Counted from the first letter of the whole stretch, positions 4,320 through 41,600 are shown. The stretch is DNA of 48,623 bases, filler included, from Catajapyx aquilonaris (GCA_000934665.2; 2 parts of 2 records of this genome joined end to end with filler, not necessarily neighbours in it), one strand, 5' to 3'. Translations and numbers: made by a program. Notes: generated by a model not told the origin, from the sequence alone.

Positions 4320-5360
4320 ATGGAACCACCCCAAATTTGTGCACAAGCGTCTTTACTGACACTGAATGCCAGTCCAGTTACAATATCTACCGTGCCTTCA
4401 TACCCTTCCGTGACTGGAAAAAAGAGGCGGTACCTTGGACTTGCCATTGCTGTCACTTCATCAATCTTCTTCTCCTTGTCTACAGTCATTGTTAAGAAAA
4501 TGGATAACCTCAGTCCAAACCTGATGACTGCATATCGCTTTGTAGGGATCCTACTGCCAACCCTTCCTATCATAACTATGACTGACTCAGTCAGAGAACT
4601 TTTATTTCCAAGAAACAAGAGGGCACTCTTGTTCATCCGTGGGGTGGCAGGCAGCACATCCATGATGCTAATCTATTACGCCTTTCAAATCATGCCGCTA
4701 GGAGATGCATCTGTCATCATGTTCAGCCAGCCCATTTTTGTGCCTATTTTTGCAAAGATATTTTTGCAAGAGAGTTGTGGAATCATGCATGGAATCTGCA
4801 TTGCTCTCACTCTCACTGGCTTAGTGCTTATTGCCAGACCAAGCTTTTTGTTCGCCAATCACGGACAGATGGTTGATAACTACTGGAAAGCATGTTTTGC
4901 AATCTTGGGAGGCACTGTCATCAATTCCACCATATTTGTTGTGCTGAGAAAGCTTCAAGACGTGCCAGTTAATGTAGTTTTGCTTCACTTTAGTGTCATT
5001 GCCATTGTGATGTCAAGTTTTGTAACAACAGTATTTGGTGGCTGGTGTATACCTGTATGTGGCAAGGAACGGTGGATGATTGTAGCCCTGGGTGTGCTCG
5101 GCTTTGGAGCACAGGCCTTACTCACATTGTCACTCCAACTGGAGCAAGCAGGACCTGTGTCTATTGCACTGACTTCAAACATCGTATTTGCTTTTATCTG
5201 GCAAATAATATTCTTTGAAGAAGACAAGGTCAATATTTGGAGTGTGACAGGAGCACTGCTAGTTACATCATCTGTGCTTGGCATTGGCCTCCGGGCTTGG
5301 GTTGCTGGACTTCCTACTAATTCCCGTACACAGCAGATGCTTCGCTGGATGATCAAGTAG
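4320..5360 (+). CDS. SLC35G1: SLC35G1-like EamA/DMT transporter, paralog 2 (346 aa, intronless CDS)
   Basis: Intact ORF with about 10 hydrophobic segments and family motifs YYAFQIMPLGDASVIMFSQPIF, IARPSFLF, VVLRKL, LQLEQAGPVSI, FAFIWQ. Confidence 0.9.
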   Translation: MEPPQICAQASLLTLNASPVTISTVPSYPSVTGKKRRYLGLAIAVTSSIFFSLSTVIVKKMDNLSPNLMTAYRFVGILLPTLPIITMTDSVRELLFPRNKRALLFIRGVAGSTSMMLIYYAFQIMPLGDASVIMFSQPIFVPIFAKIFLQESCGIMHGICIALTLTGLVLIARPSFLFANHGQMVDNYWKACFAILGGTVINSTIFVVLRKLQDVPVNVVLLHFSVIAIVMSSFVTTVFGGWCIPVCGKERWMIVALGVLGFGAQALLTLSLQLEQAGPVSIALTSNIVFAFIWQIIFFEEDKVNIWSVTGALLVTSSVLGIGLRAWVAGLPTNSRTQQMLRWMIK

Positions 5361-5540
5361 TTTTCAATGGCAAAAATGTACATTTTGGAAATACAGAAAA
5401 GGTGATGTGACTTTGCATTATTATCAAATGTGCATATCTGATGATAGGCTCTGTAATTCTTAGATTTACTATTTTGGATTTCCAAAACTGTACTATGCTT
5501 TACTGTTTTCTTACTTTTTCATTGCAATGAATGTGTGTCA

Positions 5541-5632
5541 TTTTCAGCTCGTATTTTGGGTTAACTTGCATCTCCTTCATCACTGACTACCCCTTTTAGA
5601 TAAAATGTTGGGATGAATGATAATGATGATGA
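5541..5632 (+). mobile_element. decayed 3'-terminal fragment of the RTE LINE family at 13067-14522
   Basis: TTTTGGGTTAACTTGCATCTCCTTCATCACTGACTACCCCTTTTAGATAAAATGTTGGGATGA-(GAT)n matches the reverse complement of ~13087-13165 and 16340-16420. Confidence 0.7.
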
Positions 5633-6429
5633 TATGTGGGATTGCAAGCAGCCAATTCCTGTCTGATGGCATTGTCTTCCTGCCACTGGTATTTGGCCAT
5701 CTCCAATGGGCACCTTACTTCTTCAACCCCCAACCTCTCCACTAACCACCACCTCCACCAACCACCCTCAACTAGCCTCAACCACCACATTCTCTCTCCC
5801 TCATTCTAAGCTCCTGGACCTACGTACAGCAGAATGACATTGTGCTTTATTGTCCCATCAATAGTTTTCAATGCATTACTGACTTCACAAGTTCCCATTT
5901 GTTTTCAGTTTTATTTAAATAGCAACCATTGTTATTCTAACAATATAATCAAACATATTTGAGGAAGAGTTGCAAGTTTATTTCATTTTGTGTGATCAAA
6001 AGAGAATTTCTCCAATAGAATTTGTTAGCTTTGACTTCTCTGCTGCCCAAGAGTAGCTTTTGTACTACTTCCCTCTTCTTGGCTGCTAAAATGGTGAGAA
6101 TAATGGCAGTGGAAGCAGTTCTAATGAAGCCAAAATGTACGGTGTGACAAGAAATTCTTCTGACACATGCCACACACATACATGATGTAATTATTTGACC
6201 TTCCAAGCTGACCTTCACAAAGGTAAGGTGATTGTTAACAGAGTTTATGGAAACACTTAAGTTCTTTTTATGTCACTGTAATTTCTCTTGATGCAAAGGT
6301 TAAAATAAGCAGATAATTACCAAAATGATGACACAAAAATAGTGGCAGCGGATACCATTAAAAGAAGAAAAAACCAGTTAACCACAAGACAACTATCACA
6401 CTGAAGGCCTTTCCATCCAAAGAGCTGCA

Positions 6430-7521
6430 ATGTCATATCCTCATCGCTGCAGTGGTTCAGTACAGACTGAGTTCCATCTGCAAAATGAATCAAACGTTGA
6501 CTACGAAATTACGGAAGTGATCGAGTTTTATGATGAAGGTTCCTTCCAAGAGTCAGATCATTCTGTCATTCAGAAGACAAGAAAACAGAGGTCTAGATAC
6601 TTGGGGCTCCTCTTTGCCATTCTTGCAGCCTTTTCAATATCCTTCGCAGGAGCCTTAGTTAAGACAGTGGACAATATCAGCTCCTTTCAAATAACTGCGT
6701 ATCGCTTCATGGCAATCTTGCTTCTTGCAGTACCAGTGTTGACTTGCCGAACAAGTGGGAAACCATCCTTACTGTCATACATATTCCCAAAGGGAAAGAA
6801 ACTACTGCTACTAATTCGTGGAGTAACAGGTGCTGCGGTGATGATGTCCAAATATTTTGCCTTCCAGAATATGCACTTGGCCGATGCATCTGTCATCATG
6901 TGTAGTTCGCCCATTTTTGTGACTATCCTTGCAAGAATAATCTTGAAGGAGAAATTTGGAATAGTCAACATAGCATGCATCTTCCTTACCATTTCAGGCC
7001 TTGCAATTGTTGCAATTTCTTCAACAAGAGAGCAAACAACAGCATGGCAAGGCGTCATGGCTGCTTTTGCAAGCACAATAATGAACTCATTTTTGTTCAT
7101 AGCCCTGCGAAAACTTCGTCAAGTTTCAGTTGAAGTTATCCTCCTGCACATGTCTAATGTGGCCATTGTGATTACAAGCTGTGCAACTGTTATAGAGAAA
7201 GGCAGCATGTGCATACCAGCATGTGACAAAGACCGTCTGATAGTCACTGCAATTGGATTGCTCAGCTTTGCAGCCCAGATGTTTCTGACTCTATCATTCA
7301 AGTGGGAGGAAGCAGGACCAGTATCTATTGCACTCACCTCAGATATAATGTTCTCCTTCATCTGGCAAAAACTAATCTTCAATCACGATTCCACTATCTG
7401 GAGCATCATGGGAGCAGTGTTGGTGGCATCCTCAGTCGTAGCCATAGGCCTCCGAAAGTGGATAGCTTCCCTTCCTCCTGGTTCACCTGGCCGGCGATGG
7501 TGTGGTTGGCTTACAAGATAA
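6430..7521 (+). CDS. SLC35G1: SLC35G1-like transporter, paralog 3 (363 aa, intronless CDS)
   Basis: Intact ORF; motifs RYLGLLFAIL, IFPKGK, YFAFQNMHLADASVI, IALRKL, KWEEAGPVSIALT; AATAAA about 20 bp after the stop. Confidence 0.9.
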   Translation: MSYPHRCSGSVQTEFHLQNESNVDYEITEVIEFYDEGSFQESDHSVIQKTRKQRSRYLGLLFAILAAFSISFAGALVKTVDNISSFQITAYRFMAILLLAVPVLTCRTSGKPSLLSYIFPKGKKLLLLIRGVTGAAVMMSKYFAFQNMHLADASVIMCSSPIFVTILARIILKEKFGIVNIACIFLTISGLAIVAISSTREQTTAWQGVMAAFASTIMNSFLFIALRKLRQVSVEVILLHMSNVAIVITSCATVIEKGSMCIPACDKDRLIVTAIGLLSFAAQMFLTLSFKWEEAGPVSIALTSDIMFSFIWQKLIFNHDSTIWSIMGAVLVASSVVAIGLRKWIASLPPGSPGRRWCGWLTR

Positions 7522-10532: not shown

Positions 10533-11699
10533 ATGGCAAATAATATGGCAGGACCTGCACACCGCAACACAGAAGATCCGGACGAAAGGGAAGAAGCCCT
10601 ATCGCCTCATACTCATGATGCCAATGAAAGAAGAGTAAGCATTACCGATGAAAGAAGAGTAAGCATTACTGAGGTGATAGAGTTGTTTGATGAAGGCTCA
10701 ATTACATCCCTTCCTACAACTGGGAAGCGAACAAACTGGACCAGGTACCTTGGCCTGCTCTTTGCTGTACTCTCTGCCCTGGCCCTCTCAATCACCTCTG
10801 TACTCGTCAAGCAATTGGACCAAATCCACCCATTCTTGTTGAGTGCATATCGTTTTACAGGAATCCTGCTCCTCCTAATGCCAGCTCTGGTTTTCAGTGC
10901 CAAAAGCCCTGTACCTCAATACATCTTCCCAAAGGGACAGATGCAGCTTCTCCTCATACGTGCTCTAGCTAGTGCCTTTAGGATCATGCTGATGTACTAT
11001 GCCTTTCAACATATGCCTCTGTCAGATGCCTCTGTCATAATATTTAGTGCTCCCATATTTGTCACCATCTTGGCAAGAATATTCCTCAAAGAGAAGTTTG
11101 GAATAATCCATATTGTCTGCATTATCCTCACCTTCATTGGCCTGATACTGAGTACAAGGCCAGTCTTCATATTTGGAGAGAGTGACCAATCAAAGGAAAG
11201 TGGCAAAGGAGTGACTCAGACTTCCTGGCAAGGAATCATAGCTGCAATGGGAAGCACCTTAATGTCCTCAGCACTCTTCATAGTTCTGCGCAAGCTTCAG
11301 CATGTCCCAGTCCTAGTGATCTTGTTTCATCTGGGATACATTGCCATAGTAGTGACCTTTTCTGTGGCCCTGATAGTTACAAACTTGTGCATGCCTGAGT
11401 GTGTTTCGGACCGTCCAAAGATTCTTGCAATAAGCATGCTCAGTTTAGCAGGACAGACATGCATGACATTGTCATTCAAGTGGGAAGAAGCAGGACCAGT
11501 GTCTATTGCACTTACTACTGACATCATTTTTGCTTTTGTCTGGCAAAGTTTATTTTTTAATGATCCCATCACTGTGGAGAGCATCTTTGGTGCAATTCTT
11601 GTGTCTTCCTCTGTTCTTGCAATTGGCCTCAGAAAGTGGGTGGCTTCACTCCCACCAAGTTCATCACGAAGGCGAAAGTTGTCTTGGCTGATGAGGTAA
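10533..11699 (+). CDS. SLC35G1: SLC35G1-like transporter, paralog 4 (388 aa, intronless CDS)
   Basis: Intact ORF; motifs YYAFQHMPLSDASVIIFSAPIF, TRPVFIFG, IVLRKL, KWEEAGPVSIALT. Probable 5'-UTR splice acceptor TGTTTATTTGCAG ending 10421. Confidence 0.9.
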   Translation: MANNMAGPAHRNTEDPDEREEALSPHTHDANERRVSITDERRVSITEVIELFDEGSITSLPTTGKRTNWTRYLGLLFAVLSALALSITSVLVKQLDQIHPFLLSAYRFTGILLLLMPALVFSAKSPVPQYIFPKGQMQLLLIRALASAFRIMLMYYAFQHMPLSDASVIIFSAPIFVTILARIFLKEKFGIIHIVCIILTFIGLILSTRPVFIFGESDQSKESGKGVTQTSWQGIIAAMGSTLMSSALFIVLRKLQHVPVLVILFHLGYIAIVVTFSVALIVTNLCMPECVSDRPKILAISMLSLAGQTCMTLSFKWEEAGPVSIALTTDIIFAFVWQSLFFNDPITVESIFGAILVSSSVLAIGLRKWVASLPPSSSRRRKLSWLMR

Positions 11700-17255: not shown

Positions 17256-17993
17256 ATATATTACCAGTTTACCACAATGCCACACTGCCTCCCCTGCAGA
17301 TGTCAGTATGTGGCTTCAAAATATGCTTGACCTCATTTAATTTTCTGATAATGTCCTCTCATTTCCTAATAATATTGAAGTCATATGATTATTCCCATAC
17401 ATCAGTGCAGGGTTACATTATTTATACAAAATGATTCTATCCCTCTGGAAAAATATGCCCATAAACGAGATTTGTTAATTTAGTGTTTATTGTCATTGAT
17501 TACCACTGAGAGGAGGTAGGGTTGAATTGGAAGCAGGGGTCGCGAATTTTACAAGACGATTTTCTGGGGTTGTTAACGAAAATGATTGGGAAGCACCGAA
17601 GCACCGCTATACATACATGTCTTTAGCAAAGTCTCTCCATTCCACAAAAACTATCGAGACTGAACAGGTATCTAGATTAGAAAAAAGAAAGAAAAGAAAT
17701 AAAGAAATTACTGCATTTGGAACAAACCAAAGTTCTTCTGTGGTCAAGTTTCCACTGTACATAGGATGCATAGTAGACAGGTTATCCTGCATTGCATTAG
17801 GTAGACGGCAATTACTCTGAAAACGGCAGGTGGGTGAGTGGTAAGGGGTCATGATAGGTATCAAAATTAACACATAATTTGTTTCTTGCAAGAAGCTGCA
17901 GCCAGTGTCTATTATGGGATAAAATTCTGTATTGCAAAAAGAGGCACAAGCCATCAGTAGCGAAACTATCTTCAGTTCCTGGTGGTCAAGACA

Positions 17994-20293
17994 ATGACGA
18001 TGACAAACCAAAACCAATCAAACACAACACTAAAAACCCAGGAAAGTGCTTTTGGCCTGATTTCATGCCACAGCATTGCAGAGAGACTGCATATGACCGA
18101 ACCTTCACGCACCTTCATCTACCCTTACATCGACTCAGTGGAAGTGCTTGAGTTTGCACCCAAGGATGTTGACGTAATATCTGTCAAGACAATTGAACAC
18201 TCCCTTTCATACTCTTCATTTACGTCTGTCCTAGGGAAGAGGAGGAGGTTTCTAGGATTAATCTGCGCAGTGTTGTCAAGCTTTGTGTTCTCTCTGACAT
18301 CAGTCATTGTCAGATACCTGACACATATCAGCCCACATCAGCTTGCTGCACTTCGCTTCATTATCATCATGATTCCAACCTTACCAATGCTGGCATACAA
18401 TGCAAAACAACCATTTCTGCAATATATTTTTCCGAAGAAGAAATTCTGGCTGCTATTTCTTCGCGCAGTGGCTGGTGCCTTCATTGTCATGCTGGAATAC
18501 TACTCATTTCAGGTCAGTATATTACAGAAGTGTTACTCCACATGTGTTTGTGCATGCAGTCCATTTTCTTTAATAATGGGAGCTTCACATTTACAAATTC
18601 TCTGATTTAATGGCATTAATTTCACCGTCAAATTACATCTTCCCACCAATGATAACAATTAAACTAATACTAAAACACTACCAACAGTGCGGAAAACGAA
18701 ACGACGATCTGACATCATAATTTTGTTCTCATGGAACAATGGGCGTAACTTATGGTTGACACTGTTTACTCATATTGTTGTGTGACGATGATGTCAGATT
18801 GTCGTTTCGTTTTCCGCACAGTATGTCAGACCCCAAATTTCAATGCTGGGCCTACAGGTCAGAATATATTCAATGTGGAGATTCTGTTTCCTAAAAATTA
18901 GAGATGAAAAAATAGCATAAGTGATGTAAGCCTAGCCTTTTATCTCTGAAGCCCTATGTTTGATCCTTGGGTCCAAGTATACAGGGTGTAGGCTGTAATT
19001 CGGGACAGACTTGTAGGGGTAATAGACCAAGACAAATATTTTTCACATAGGAACCCATGTCCACCATCTAGAGGGGGACAATAGACATGGAATGGGTATG
19101 CTTAGATGCGTCAGGCAGGAGACGCTAGACAAGCAGACCATTTAGTTGCTAGGTGGCAATCGGACAGTATACAATGGCGTGATGTGCAGTAACCTGGCCA
19201 AAACAAAGCCATTGTTTACTATCCTCAGACTACCTAGAAAGTGGGCTTTACTTGCTAGGTGCACACAAAGAGTTCTGCTATAATATACAGGGTGTAATTG
19301 AATCGATCAGTGAGGCCTGTACCCATGGCTTAATTGTCACTGTGTCAGAATTATGGCAACACGACCATAAAGGCCCCGCGCCATATTGTCACAGGGACAA
19401 GAAGTCCAAGCGCTTAATTGTCACCAGAGGATCATGTTATGTAGAGGAGTCATTACGTCTGGGCAGCCTCATTACTGAGATAATTATTGATCATTTACAA
19501 TTTAGCAATTGGGCCTAAGAGTGATTGTCAAATAGCAGTGTCAATGTCAGTGCTGGTGTGTGCCATGCGACAAACATGCAAAAACACGCTTCTTGTAAAA
19601 TTAATGTATCTCTACTCATTTCAGGAGATGCAATTGGCTGATGCCACTGTGATACAGTTCAGTGTGCCCATATTTGTGATTGTGTTAGCACGGTTCTTCC
19701 TGCAAGAGACATGTGGTGTGATCAACATTGCTTGCATCATACTCACCTTCCTTGGACTGCTGCTAATTGCAAGGCCCAGCTTCATGTTTAGCTCTCCTAA
19801 CAACAAGCCACCCAAATGGGAAGGAGTAGCGGCTGCATTTGCTGGAACCATTTTCAGCTCTGGAGCGTACATCATTCTTAGGAAGCTGCGGAGTGTCCCA
19901 GCAGAAGTTGTGGTGCTCCATTTGGTGGCTGTCGCCATGGTGATTGCGGGTGGGATCCTTTCAGCTCAACTGATGGAGCTGTGCATGCCTGGATGCTACA
20001 TCGACAGGCTTTTGCTGCTAGCTTTAGGACTTCTTAGTTTTGCAGGCCAACTCTTTCTCACCCTAGCCCTCAAGTGGGAAGAGGCAGGTCCAGTGTCCAT
20101 AGTACGAACAACCAATATATTATTTGCATTTGCGTGGCAAGCGTGGATCTTCCATGAAGTTCCCAGCGTCTTGACCATTGTAGGAGCATTCCTTGTAACA
20201 TCTTCAGTTCTGGCTGTTGGCATGGTCAAGTGGCTAACAAGACTACCCAGGGAATCAGCAGCAAGGCATTGGCTGGGATGGATGCTCAAGTAG
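17994..20293 (+). CDS. SLC35G1: SLC35G1-like transporter, paralog 5 (two coding exons: 17994-18512, 19625-20293; ~395 aa)
   Basis: Exon 1 ends ...YYSFQ at CAG|GTCAGT (18512/18513); exon 2 starts TTTCAG|GAG (19624/19625) EMQLADATVI. The phase-0 join reconstitutes the contiguous YYAFQxMxLADA motif of the paralogs. Start could be ATG 17994, 18000 or 18093. Confidence 0.88.
18500..19625 (+). other. 1112-bp GT-AG intron (18513-19624) flanked by exact 14-bp direct repeat
   Basis: CTACTCATTTCAGG at 18500-18513 and 19612-19625; both splice junctions fall at the CAG|G inside the repeat copies. Confidence 0.88.
18685..18821. mobile_element. 137-bp MITE inside the paralog-5 intron
   Basis: ~34-bp TIR CAGTGCGGAAAACGAAACGACGATCTGACATCAT / ATGATGTCAGATTGTCGTTTCGTTTTCCGCACAG (2 mismatches); TA on the right flank, AA on the left. 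Confidence 0.85.
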
Positions 20294-23200
20294 GAATAAT
20301 GGCATCTGGAAAATATTAAAGCAAGAAATACATACACAGATTATTTTTACATGTACATAACATCTACTTCCAGGAGCTTCCTGTTCTTGTGATTACCTAG
20401 TTTATTCAGCAAAAGTTAAAGTTTCAAGGTTTATTTACATTCATGTTCAAATGCAAAGCTGTGCAAATATAATTATAGCTTTTCATTCTTCATGTGAAGG
20501 TACTTGACACATTAAATAATGTTCTGATAAATAGACTACATTTATTTTATTAATGCAGAACATCACGTCATATTTAAGTCAATATGTTAACTCATTCTAT
20601 TTGATGGTGTTTTTGCTACTTTTTCGTCCACAACTTTTCAAATCTTCCAGCCAAAACCTTGTGTAACATATGCCAAAAGACCTATAAGCAGATAGATATC
20701 TGTCCTATCTCCCACTGATAAATTAATGACCTTGCATTTCAACCTAGTAAAAGCACGAGTGATTGCAATACACAGCTTTTCATTGTAATTTTTTCTGGCC
20801 AGAGTACAGTGTTTTGGTTTTCCTCGATTTGTAATAGCATAATTCCCTGTGTAGAACACTCATCCATATCAACAGCGGGTGAAGTATACATTTCTGTGCC
20901 TACTACAAATTTGAGAAGGTTCGTTTGATTCTTCTGTTATAGGCAGCACATGATAACTTCCAAATGATGTCATTATTTTTTTTCACCAATTCCTAGTCAA
21001 CTTAAATATGCTGAACACAATTGGGTGGGTGGACCTTTAACATTTATTTCCTTGCTCACCTATGTCGGCACAGGTGAATTTTTTTTTGTGTACAACATGG
21101 TAAGCGCTGCCGTAATGGCATAATGTGATTGAAAGTCTCATTTTTATAACACGTGTTACCGTACCTTAAATATTCATTAATGAAATTTTTGGAATTGCGG
21201 CTAAGTTCATCCTGGCGGCCAACGTCACCCCGTTTGATGGTATTGACAGTAATTTACTCCAAATTTCGTTTTGATAATAATTTTTAATTATATTCTTCCC
21301 ACATTTTCTGTGCTTCAAACCAGATGCTAGTATCATACTCACTTGACGTGGCATGGCTTCGTCCCTCATCTCGGAGACAATCTATTTCTAGTTAGGGTGG
21401 ACAACCAATCTGTGCTGTATGTCCTCACTAAGCCATGAAAATTAACAAAACTTCAGGGGGATGCAACATATCACTATGATCATGCTCCCCCTGCAGCAAC
21501 TGATACAGTCACGGAATGACAGCCTGGATTTTCCACCGACTCATGCGGCACTTTCGTGTCAAAATATCTGAACATGCTAACTGCACTTGCTTTTGCTGCA
21601 TTACTTTTCCTACATGTCTGTTGACGATGGCTCAAAATTCCTACCTATTCCATCCTACTGTATTTCGTTCTTTTCTGCCCATACGTATAATAGAGGGTAA
21701 TTCCACACCGGAAGAGTCATTAGCCAAAAATTAATCGCGCATTGTAAGGTGGCTATGCCTTATTGAAATCAGATCATTATGTCATTTTGTCTGATGAAGA
21801 AGGCGTAGCAATGTTCTGCTACCAGATAGCAGCAGAGCCACGGAATAGTCGAGATATAATAGTCGTAACTGACGCAACTTCGCAAGGTTTGTTGTCAGTT
21901 ACGTTAATCCTAATTTCTCCTGAAAATATGAATATTAACATGCGTGATCTAATAGATTGCATATCAGTTATAATATTACTTCTAAACACATTCATCTCAC
22001 AGGATTTCATTACATTACATGTCCTATTCATGTTACATCAGTTACATCACATTAATACTTTACAGAGTCCATTCAAGTTACTGTTGCGAAATTATAAAAA
22101 TATGGCAATAAGCTCCTACAAGGCGGCCGCATGAGAATAATTTTAAATTCCCTTTCCATTAACATTTGCCATCGCAATAAATATAAATACAGCATGAATC
22201 CTGTCCACGGGATGCGTCAGTTACGGTGGAATTGCCATAGACACAGTCCCTGGTAATGTGTGAGGGAGTTCGATGAGAACTTGATGTGGTCATAATATCT
22301 CACGAAACAAGCTAAGTCAGAACCCAAACTTCGGAAAATCCAAAATAATGCAAAGTAACAACCTCTCCGTGTCATGCCGATGTCGGCATCTCCTCCTGAA
22401 GCGCGTCCTGAAGCGTATCCCTGAAGAAACAGTCAAGCCCCGATCGCACTACGTTTCCTTTTTCCACAACTCTTCGCGCCATCTTGGAATCTTGGATTTC
22501 ATCTGTTTTCTTTTTCCCGCCGATCGGCAGCCGAATGAATCTACGTTATCATTTAATAAATCATTTGAATATATTCCCCATCTCACATTTTTACCGCAGC
22601 CATGTTTCACTCTCAAGTTATTATACTTTGTAATTCTCTGGAAATTGAAGCAAACTTCGATTGGCAACACTCATTGTTTTGGCAACCCTTATTTCAAAAT
22701 GGTGGGTGGATGCATTCCCCAAATGTGCTGCAATCTATTTTAATTTTTGCGTATTTCCGATGGGGTTTGCTGGGAGCAAGTGCGGAGGCATCTAACATGG
22801 GTGTGTGGGATGTTGTGGATCTTGGCCAGCAGCACCAAGTGTTTCTGGATCATTTGAAGTGGTGCACTGTATTACCCAAAATGATAAACCAAAAAATGTC
22901 AGTGGTATTATGTCGTTTCAGCACGTGCAAGTTTACTGTGCATTGGTGCAGCTGAATACAACAGACATAGTTGTGTAGCAATATCGAGGCATGAATGCAT
23001 GTGTATAATTATGGGCTTGTATTTCAGATGTATATACAGTAGCCCACATAGTATCGATAGTATGTATTTTTTAAAAGTTATGTCTGTATACCATTTTGAC
23101 GATGACTAGAGCGGCAGTGGCATACCTTTAGCAGCGTACATTACAGTGGCATACTCTTTATTAAGTTTGTGTGTCGTCTTGTCTTCACAGAAATTAATGA

Positions 23201-23361: not shown

Positions 23362-23902
23362 ATGGCTTCCAGCATCACCATGGAAATGAGGCCAATATCA
23401 CCACACCAGGATGAGAGTGATGATTGCGAGGATCCACCTCCCTCAGCAGACCTTATTCAGAAGCCCAAGGCAAGGGGTGGAAAAACTAGATATCTTGGCC
23501 TGGTTTTTGCCATACTCTCTGGCTTACTCTCTACGCTTCAGTCTGCTAGTGTTAAGAAAGTTCATGGTGTCAGCACATTCCAGATAGGTACCTATCGATA
23601 TATTGGTATGCTCCTTCCAACTCTGCCCATGCTTATATTTAAAGTTGAAACCCCTGCATCTGAGCATGTACTTCCTAAAGGAAAGATACCACTTCTGGTC
23701 CTTCGTGGTGCAATCAGCTCCATAAGCCTCATGTTCAAGTACTATGCATTTAAGAACTTGCCCTTGTCTGATGCATCAGTCATAGTGTTCAGTGCACCAA
23801 TATTTGTAGTTGTGCTTGCTCGGATATTTCTTAAAGAAATGTGTGGTTTGGTTAACTTAATCTGTATCATTGTCACCACTGCAGGATTAATCTTAATTGC
23901 CA
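23362..23902 (+). CDS. SLC35G1: SLC35G1-like transporter, paralog 6, N-terminal half only
   Basis: RYLGLVFAIL, VLPKGK, YYAFKNLPLSDASVIVFSAPIF, through TTAGLILIA; homology ends about 23902 and unrelated sequence runs to the gap. Probable 5'-UTR acceptor TTGTCTTCACAG ending 23190. Intact versus disrupted status unknown. Confidence 0.8.
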
Positions 23903-24178: not shown

Positions 24179-24278
24179 NNNNNNNNNNNNNNNNNNNNNN
24201 NNNNNNNNNNNNNNNNNNNNNNTTAATTAATTAANNNNNNNNNNNNNNNNNNNNNNNNNNNNNNNNNNNNNNNNNNNN
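24179..24278. other. artificial 100-bp contig spacer
   Basis: 44 N + TTAATTAATTAA (24223-24234; stop codons in all six frames) + 44 N. Confidence 0.95.
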
Positions 24279-38400: not shown

Positions 38401-38628
38401 ACAACTGCAGGTAAATAATGGTGGGCTGGTTTGAAGGAGAAGCAGTCATGCCCAATACACTCATGAAGTCCTTCGTACACTGCGACTGAAGTCCGGACAC
38501 AGTCCGTGAGGTTCAAGTTGTTGGAAAGTCTGACACTACAGAATCAAGTGACTTACGCCTTGGTCATGCCCACACAATTGTGCGCATGTGGTGAATTTAA
38601 TTTGATGCATAATAATTTTTTTGCAGAT

Positions 38629-41600
38629 ATGGACGGTGTCGGTAGGAACATGGAGCTTATGCAGGGGTCTGAATCGACAAGTAACAAGATGGCAGCCTTG
38701 CTTTCCTTATGTAATAATCCGACACCAGCTCCCAAGAAGGTGTCGTGTCCTGTATGTACCCTGTACCTGAGGGAAGGGATGACGCTTCAGGACCACTTGC
38801 TGACGCATCCTAAGGAGCAGATAATATCGGCGCTGGTTAATGCAACCACTTTACCTTCACCTGCAGTCCAGGAACCTCCGCGCCCTCCAACACCACCGAC
38901 CTCTTCTCCTCCCTTGCCCATGGTCACCTCTCTACCGCTTCCCACATCACCCTCAACACCATTTCCATCTCAAGGGATGTGTCAACCTTATCCTGTTGGC
39001 TTACCATACGCTGCCATGTACCTATGTGCAGGTAGGGGACTTCCACCTGGCGTTCCAATGTTGCCGATGCCCTCAAGAGGTGCCACGGTAACCCCAATCA
39101 CTGCCAATGTTGAGGAAGTAATGGACGAAAGCTTGCCTGAAGCTGAAAATGCTGAAAGTGAGACTGAGAACGTTGAAAATGTTGGTAATGAAGCCGAAAG
39201 TTTAGGGAGTCCTGTGCCGTCACCTGTCAGAAAGGAAGAAGTGCAGATAGATGAGGAGGTGCCACCTGGTGGAGACTGCCTGGTTGAAATCAATGGGACT
39301 CATTTCCTAGTCCCCATGGACCTGCTGGCTGGGAAGGCATGTGTTAATGATAGTGTGAATGAAGCACAAAAAACTCTGGAGCAAGGGCAGGACCTACCGC
39401 AAGAAACAGAGCATTACGTGGTACCAGAAGACATCAACACATACGAGTACAACAATGAGAGTGACGTGAACGAGGATGTGAGAAGAGATTCGGAGGATGC
39501 GTGGGCTCCTCTGGCAGTTAGTAATTTTTTTCACCTTAAGTTGACTTGACAGCTCATGTTTTCTGCATGTACAGAAAGACTGCCCAAGTTTATATCTCCT
39601 GGAGATGTTAACTTACGCAGCATTGCATTTTGCATATTACTGAAGTGCATTTCTTTTTAAGTTTTAAAATTGTCATGTTATTTTTTCAAATTTCTCCCAC
39701 TGATGTTAACTAATCCTTGTTTCGATTTTCAGAATGTGGACATTTATGGGTCTGGCTGCTGGACATCTCCATCTCCAACCAGCATTGCCAACATGTCACC
39801 CCCAAGGCCACCGTCAGAGGCGCCTTCATCCCCTAACTCTTCCATCCTGGAGATGGAAGTCAGACAACACGCTAGTGATCCTCTCACAAGTGAACACTCT
39901 TATGATCTGCCTCGTCCTGTTGCTCCCAGAGTACCAGATGAGAGCAACATACCAGCAGCAGTCACCCGCAGGCGTAAGCGTAAGACAGCAGCAACTACTC
40001 GCAGGAGGTCACTTCGTCGCAAGGCAGAAATGTCACCTGCTGAGAAAGAGGAAGCAGTAGTGGATGAAGTGGCAATGGTTCTGCCTGCACCATCATTGTC
40101 ACAATTAGTGGCCCAGCCTGAAGAGATGTCAATGGCTGAGATTAAAAATGTGTCGTTGCTTTCATCAGACATTTCCAGCATCGAGCGGGCAGTGACGCCG
40201 CCATCTGTGGAGGTTTCCAGCAAATGTGTTGGGAGGCAGCAGAAGCCCTACGAGTGTTTGGAATGTGGAGCTTGCTTCAGGAGAAAGGCGGGGCTCAAGT
40301 GAGTATGCACTGAGGTCGAAATGGTTCTACCATAACGATGTGTAGATTTGGTACCACAATGGCTGTCACGCTTTGGTAGAATAACACCTGTATATGACAT
40401 ACATAAAATCTAATGGCCTATCTGTGGGGTATTGTGATATGAGTCCCATCTTGCATATTACCACTCTTCTAACAAGTAATCTTTGGCAGGCTTCACAGCA
40501 TGCGGCACAGTGGGGAGCGCCCTCACCGGTGTTCCTTCTGCCAGAAGGGCTTCCTTACTCGGCAGAAGCTCCAGGAGCATGTGAATGGCCACACAGGCGA
40601 AGCACCTCTCCGATGTCCTGTCTGCCCTAAGACATTCCGCCGCTACAGTAACCTCATCCAGCATCGCTCCACCCACTCTATGCCTGCCGCAAAAATCACT
40701 CCGACACCACCTGGTAGTGGGGGTGGAGGAGGAAGAGGGCCTGTTGCATCCTCATCCTCCACAACAAGAAGGCAGAGAGACTTTTTGTGTGACGTGTGCC
40801 ATGAAGTGTTCCATTCCCTGCGGAAGCTTGCCTGGCACAAGGAAGTCCACTCCCGCAAGCCCAAAGTGTGCTCTCACTGTGGGGAGTGTTTTGTCCATGG
40901 GTCCAGTCTCACAAGGCACGTGAGAGTGGTGCATGACAGGGAGTTTCTGCCTGATGAGTCCAGGGCAAGATTCAACACTAGGTGTCCTATTTGTTCAGGG
41001 ATGTTTCTCAAGTCCTCCCTTTCTGCACATATACGGACACACACTGGTGAGTCTTCTGGCATTACTTGATTGCAAGTAGCATGCAACTGAAGGAGGAAGT
41101 TGGTGGTGCATGTGATCTTGTCGTAGGTATAGCAATAACACATCTCAAGGAGGGTTTGCTGTATATGCAACCAGGGCAGGGCCTGACAGAATCCTGCTTC
41201 AGTTCAAGAATTTCTTTGCATAACTCAGCTGTGTAGTTTCACTGTGTTTTGCAATTCCTTCTCCAGACCAAACAAATACAGTAAAACATCGATATAACGC
41301 TCTGCATATAAAACAATTAAAATCGCCACTTTCGTGGAACCTAGGATGACATTCCTTTTTTTGTTTGATAGCTTTTTTGAAGACGTTTTCAGCCGTACCG
41401 TACACTTTTAATTTTTACCGCAAGTTTAAGCTTGAGAAATGAAAAACCACTCTGTGGGGGTAGTCTTAAATTTCGGGAAAGACTACATGGGCAGGTCAGT
41501 TCAGGTTAATGTGGTTTATAGGCTTCAATCTACATAGCAACAGTGAAGGCATTCATTTCCTGAGAAAAGGGTGAATGAAATCGTATGTCCCGCTTATAAC

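Follow-up and report, generated by a model that had tools for sequence, protein, structure and literature searches.

One of six SLC35G1-type (EamA/DMT) transporter copies in a stretch of Catajapyx aquilonaris DNA (GCA_000934665.2; two joined parts, 48,623 nt in all, hereafter the window) is split by a candidate intron that was probably gained by the insertion of DNA with duplication of its target, in the manner of the "neointrons" of Daphnia. All six copies lie on the + strand (tblastn), and the split copy is found as two pieces, 17994-18512 and 19625-20293. The candidate intron (18513-19624, + strand, 1112 nt, phase 0) begins with GT at 18513-18514 and ends with AG at 19623-19624, and an exact 14-nt direct repeat, CTACTCATTTCAGG, lies across both of its borders. 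The left copy of the repeat (18500-18513, + strand) comprises the last 13 exon bases and the G of the donor GT, and the right copy (19612-19625, + strand) provides the acceptor CAG with its pyrimidine tract, together with the base that opens exon 2. The two copies start 1112 nt apart, with 1098 nt between them. Joining 18512 to 19625 results in an open frame of 1188 nt (395 codons) without internal stops, and the unspliced frame of the same gene meets a stop at 18605. Both the exact repeat and the 1112-bp phase-0 GT-AG intron with a scarless junction had been put forward in the original prediction for this DNA, and both were found at these positions.

Exon 1 (17994-18512, + strand, 519 nt, codons 1-173, delimited by its open reading frame and by tblastn) ends in the proto-splice site CAG. 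Exon 2 (19625-20293, + strand) carries codons 174-395 plus the stop, with an EamA match at E = 4.8e-15 and a score of 234.5 bits for the hidden Markov model (HMM) of the outgroup proteins. The donor, CAG/GTCAGT (the slash marks the junction), agrees at 8/9 positions with the consensus MAG/GTRAGT, which is a general one and not derived from this species. The acceptor reads CTACTCATTTCAG/G, with 8/10 pyrimidines at positions -13 to -4, and TTAAT, about 20 nt before the AG, is a possible branch site. As a chance set, all 151 AG/GT sites on the + strand of the window were paired with every AG lying 60-3000 nt downstream, giving 25,714 pairs. The number of pairs drops ~3.5-fold with each further base matched before the junction, from 18,862 at 2 bases to 1 at 10, and the sole pair above 10 is the 18512/19625 junction itself, with 13 bases and the shared G. 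The chance of a 13+1-nt match at the junction is of the order of 1e-5 to 1e-6 per intron. Logan contigs assembled from reads reproduce both junctions with 0 differences (17900-18784 and 19511-20400); the sample behind these contigs is probably the assembly's own. A 12/13 repeat of CAGGTCAGTATAT at 18855 was also considered and set aside, as chance alone would give ~0.7 near-matches of this kind in 1.6 kb.

The coding sequence is undecayed on both sides of the interruption. Among 58 alignment columns that are at least 90% conserved in the outgroup proteins, the split copy keeps the family residue in 49 (48, 48 and 50 in the three intact copies), and it scores 325 bits with the outgroup HMM, to which both halves contribute, vs 287-352 bits for the intact copies. 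Pfam EamA (PF00892) matches both exons. The match of exon 1 (residues 87-170) covers profile positions 2-82 of 135, so that the interruption falls within the first EamA domain. With two EamA domains and similarity to SLC35G1, the split gene is predicted to encode an SLC35G/EamA (DMT) transporter. The nearest named relatives, with 44-47% identity, are SLC35G1 proteins from a beetle, from ticks and from a mantis shrimp; 47% was also the best identity in the full scan of representative proteins, and exon 2 as a query among longer proteins gave 1 match, fungal, at 23% identity. The conserved residues and profile scores favour the split copy being a working gene.

The same structure could have arisen if the insertion is left unspliced, the copy being a young pseudogene with a 14-nt target duplication and only fortuitous splice-like signals. 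Gene death is common in this array, where 2/6 copies are already dead or truncated, the branch of the split copy is the second-longest (1.16), and the intact 14/14 repeat permits a young age. We regard a pseudogene as unlikely all the same, on the strength of the splice signals and of the preserved frame. When insertions duplicating 14 nt were simulated (non-coding DNA drawn at random from the window and put into these coding sequences at randomly chosen positions), 5,757/200,000 draws (2.9%) allowed removal as a GT-AG unit without a scar, and signals as good as those observed (donor with at least 8/9 matches, at least 8/10 pyrimidines and a pyrimidine at -3) appeared in 2/200,000, a figure that has to be read with the caveat that the locus was picked because of its intron-like look. 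A dead copy is also at odds with 395 codons open across both exons and with conserved residues kept as in the intact copies, and a true disruption in the same array, the short interspersed element (SINE) inserted in copy 1, has no solution for scarless GT-AG removal. The splice signals of the split copy are as expected if only a spliceable insertion persists under selection.

The site of the interruption is continuous in 5/5 other copies, as had been claimed before, and in 13/13 aligned outgroup proteins. The sequence CAG/G is present there only in the split copy; the other five copies have CAA/A, CAA/A, CAG/A, CAA/C and AAG/A. The six copies form one clade (support 100/99), and the best tree, (copy 2,(split, copy 6,(copy 3, copy 4))), nests the split copy among intron-less ones (82/76). 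An ancestral intron would require either a single loss before the other copies diverged from one another or several losses. The repeat would then be coincidental, or it would be a secondary patch such as part of the spliced complementary DNA (cDNA) or of a paralogue copied in front of exon 2. From these comparisons the gain of an intron appears clearly more likely than the retention of an ancestral one, because an old intron would hardly be expected to carry the 13+1-nt repeat at its junction, and this would apply even with such an intron present elsewhere.

Several observations weigh against a gain by insertion of the Daphnia type. Constraining the four intron-less copies as a clade lowers the log-likelihood by 5.78, with p = 0.094 in the approximately unbiased test. 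Thus, the tree alone does not separate one gain from one loss, which are equally parsimonious, and with the topology undecided by this test it is mainly the repeat that speaks for gain. The branch of the split copy (1.16) is longer than those of the intact copies (0.68-0.82). Frame starts in related proteins also cluster at the site. In the tabulated set (81 of the 150 best exon 2 representatives, down to P0110, with a match starting at query residue 1-5), 6/81 have open frames starting within 3 residues of the site; they lie on contigs of 1.2-9.5 kb, with 3.1-9.5 kb for three of them. Of 51 proteins from a mite subfamily (Dermatophagoides, Sarcoptes and oribatids), 6 start 0-3 residues after the site. 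In these distant relatives, such starts could reflect an exon boundary at this very codon. The repeat, with its 14 nt, is longer than the 4-12 bp of 33 Daphnia cases. A single sample, not independent of that used for the assembly, underlies all of the DNA evidence, and the removal of 18513-19624 by splicing is something that we infer from the sequence.

The frame starts could equally be produced by gene callers choosing a conserved methionine, which many members have as the first or second codon after the site and which can account for the pile-up. Of the remaining mite proteins, 10 have a later start and 35 continue across the site without a break, including one encoded on a 44-kb contig, and an uninterrupted homologue of 401 aa lies on a 37.6-kb contig. 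Set beside the chance of the junction match and the nested position of the split copy in the best tree, these uninterrupted relatives make an ancestral intron improbable, the undecided topology and the clustered starts notwithstanding. As a separate observation, mite SLC35G1-like frames often start 35-44 residues before the site (P0180, P0186, P0202, P0190 and P0172, and likewise P0181, P0201, P0182, P0183 and P0198), which suggests a conserved exon boundary at that earlier position in acariform mites.

In respect to the age of the event, the branches of the paralogues measure 0.7-1.2 changes per site. The paralogues are thus old, and a paralogue-specific intron need not be recent. The 14/14 identity of the repeat spans three synonymous exon positions in addition to weakly constrained positions of the intron copy; as a rough estimate, it points to a divergence since the event of well below ~0.3 substitutions per site.

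The termini of the insert are single-copy, and only its interior is made of dispersed repeats. Copy number was read from contigs of DNA runs X1, X3 and X4 (one sample; X2 left out) at a likeness of at least 80%. The 5' part (18514-18683, + strand) has a summed contig depth equal to that of the exons (35.2/20.6/30.9 in X1/X3/X4), with a small excess in the bin 18488-18571 that is accounted for by a single contig with repeat sequence, through its 21-nt side (29.7 x 21/84 = 7.4). The 3' part (19531-19611, + strand) is contained in a 1552-nt contig that covers 19511-20400 with 0 differences, and the bin 19580-19663 shows exon depth only. In terms of the candidate intron, the first 171 nt (18513-18683) and the last ~94 nt (19531-19624) are single-copy. 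In the same three runs, 0/14 joints listed connect 18512 to 19625, so no intron-less allele was seen among them. The contigs of a further run, X5, match repeats only and none of them falls on the exons.

A family of introners was tried as the source and rejected at this level of likeness, with both ends of the insert at exon-level depth only; more diverged copies would lie outside that scope. The search for further copies of the intron ends, which the original prediction had proposed as a check, gave the outcome expected there and speaks against an introner family. Its statement that the insert has no terminal inverted repeats and no poly-A also stands, and can be extended: ARAGORN found no tRNA-like head, nothing in Rfam exceeded the threshold, and a Pfam domain was seen in 0/6 intron frames. 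Within the window no other copies of insert parts were found, blastn giving 2 short matches at chance level (E 0.18 and 0.014). A comparison of the unique parts of the insert with the exons and paralogues on both strands gave no resemblance beyond chance, with 2/42 tests nominal and the best score, from a heavily gapped alignment, reached by 27/2000 shuffles.

Retrotransposon machinery could have placed the insert as well, by target-primed reverse transcription of a SINE, a fragment of a long interspersed element (LINE) or another RNA, and the result would be an intron made by a non-LTR (long terminal repeat) transposon. Target-primed reverse transcription typically generates duplications of ~7-20 nt. 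A comparator is available 17 kb from the repeat of the split copy, in copy 1, where a tRNA-like SINE (1285-1568) lies between the two identical copies of a 16-nt target duplication (1269-1284 and 1569-1584; the whole 1269-1584, + strand). This element is tRNA-Ser-like (ARAGORN, 1293-1364) and has no poly-A. The insert of the split copy resembles it in its long target duplication (14 vs 16 nt) and in having no poly-A, the 14 nt being also in excess of the Daphnia range noted above, and introners from many transposon orders are described in the available part of PMC12130899. The two insertions differ in that the one in the split copy has no tRNA-like head, no tail shared with other elements and no other copies, and in that the SINE insertion is not spliceable. 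Since a SINE or LINE tail should be multi-copy, and neither end of the insert is common to another contig at the likeness used, a retrotransposon origin, though a serious rival, is unlikely; the absence of any tail, of a tRNA-like head, of an above-threshold Rfam family and of a Pfam domain in six frames points in the same direction.

An intron may reportedly also arise by tandem duplication of an exon segment bearing AGGT, as proposed by Rogers in 1989. The locus agrees with this model in having a direct repeat with AG/G that spans both splice sites. It departs from the model in the following: the copies are 1098 nt apart and not adjacent, they share only 14 nt, the likeness stops at both sides of these 14 nt, and the start of the intron is unlike the start of exon 2. 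The original prediction had seen at the end of the intron a possible trace of a longer duplication; this was not borne out, as the flanks past the 14-mer are at shuffle level (223, 47, 32 and 256 of 500 shuffles reach the score). Contradicted by the spacing and by these flanks, a tandem-duplication origin was rejected and is most improbable.

For the favoured insertion with target duplication, the following course can be proposed. The ancestral site would have been the coding sequence of an intron-less SLC35G1-type gene, with the landing site ...TTTCAG/G, and the empty site, with a single 14-mer, would have read ...TACTCATTTCAG GAGATG.... The insertion, which duplicated 14 nt of the target, would have brought in either some 1.1 kb of DNA at once or a shorter piece into which repeats moved afterwards. 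The donor CAG/GTCAGT would then be composed of the left copy and the first inserted base (T), and the pyrimidine tract and acceptor, TCATTTCAG/G, would come from the right copy. Removal of one repeat copy and the insert by the spliceosome would be exact and would restore the original reading frame, and the insertion would have persisted as it happened to be spliceable. Most likely, the repair of a staggered double-strand break captured non-repetitive DNA; we infer both this mechanism and the intron-less ancestor. The interior repeats may have arrived after the insertion or along with the captured fragment.

Neointrons of Daphnia, Drosophila and Aspergillus have been ascribed to the capture of DNA at staggered double-strand breaks, with a footprint consisting of a duplication that flanks unique DNA and has the splice sites in or on it (available part of PMC3020277). 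In Daphnia, direct repeats of the exon end are present at the far end of the neointron in 33 cases, with lengths of 4-12 bp, and a likely source of the insert is given for only four (available part of PMC4202315). The candidate intron described here shares with the Daphnia cases, which are lineage- or copy-specific, its restriction to one copy, an insert without identifiable source, and an arthropod host, as judged by the best protein matches. It differs in the length of the repeat, as mentioned above, and in being long (1112 nt) and half-filled with dispersed repeats. The Daphnia type also features presence/absence polymorphism and proof from cDNA, whereas this locus is known from the DNA of one sample. 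Introners, which are multi-copy transposon families that make introns and co-opt the target duplication as a splice site (available part of PMC12130899), are similar to it in that the target duplication supplies a splice site and removal is scarless, but here the insert has no multi-copy family at a likeness of at least 80%, no terminal repeats and no transposon domains.

Read in this way, the locus is one more case, and a well-preserved one, of a route by which introns are known to arise. Clean, datable origins of animal introns are few outside Daphnia, and here the footprint of the origin is still visible as an intact target duplication that doubles as splice sites, with the tandem family supplying controls in the form of intron-less copies and a non-spliceable SINE insertion. 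A single locus adds an example and not a principle. If splicing is confirmed and further loci in the genome hold, the species could become a second arthropod system for intron birth, one that could help to tell break repair from transposon-driven gain. Speculatively, and with doubts that prevail, the genome may be going through an active phase of intron birth comparable to that of Daphnia pulex, with duplicated-target insertions at proto-splice sites repeatedly splitting intron-less tandem genes, and with the 14-nt length hinting at retrotransposon-type nicking beside break repair.

The interior of the candidate intron starts with a high-copy hairpin element (18684-18823, + strand) with 35-nt inverted arms that are 94% complementary, similar to a miniature inverted-repeat transposable element (MITE). 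A MITE in the intron had been anticipated, and the finding holds, with more dispersed repeats at ~18976-19530. The depth over the hairpin element is 4647-7298 vs 35 in X1, and contigs diverge at its borders (34-35 at 18684 and 23 at 18823); a target duplication around 18684-18823 was looked for and not found. Against Rfam the element gives mir-787 at 35.1 bits (gathering score 57) and mir-59 at 20.2 bits, both below threshold, and these matches most likely reflect only the hairpin shape. The next stretch (18824-18975, + strand) is unique at the level of 31-mers and is covered by a 212-nt contig over 18794-19005 with 0 differences and single-copy depth. It is followed by a mosaic of dispersed repeats (18976-19530, + strand, extents approximate), with depths from 642 to 38,218 vs 35 in X1. 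An exact 13-nt direct repeat (18978-18990 and 19284-19296, 306 nt apart) is present around a mid-copy repeat. As a target duplication it was dropped: the unique contig stops at 19005, hence the 30-mer with the 13-nt repeat recurs elsewhere, and these 13 nt probably belong to the repeat family itself. A very high copy number is reached at 19328-19495. The repeat at 19328-19530 contains ATTGTCA-like sub-repeats and an 84-nt segment between exact 13-nt repeats at 19328 and 19412, and other genomic copies are found without 84-91 nt of it (joints 19340->19425 and 19330->19422).

As to the remaining copies of the array, three are uninterrupted open frames (4320-5360, 6430-7521 and 10533-11699). Copy 1 (774-2329) is broken by frame changes and an insert, with tblastn pieces in frames 3/2/1/2. 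It has two matches to residues 160-221 of copy 4 (1019-1297 and 1693-2016), a hint of internal duplication. Copy 6 starts at 23362 and shows similarity only for its first half, ending at 23901; the frame continues in unrelated sequence to 24114 and is followed by two 44-N assembly gaps (24179-24278). Its second half was not found downstream at E up to 10, and the copy is truncated or misassembled. The frameshifts and SINE of copy 1, together with the truncation of copy 6, indicate that non-functional copies of the array do decay.

Elsewhere in the window, three successive open frames (327, 199 and 189 aa) at 38566-41069, which end in C2H2 zinc fingers, resemble the exons of one gene. The short candidate introns between them, GTTAGT...TTTCAG and GTGAGT...TGGCAG, suggest that splice signals in this species are conventional.

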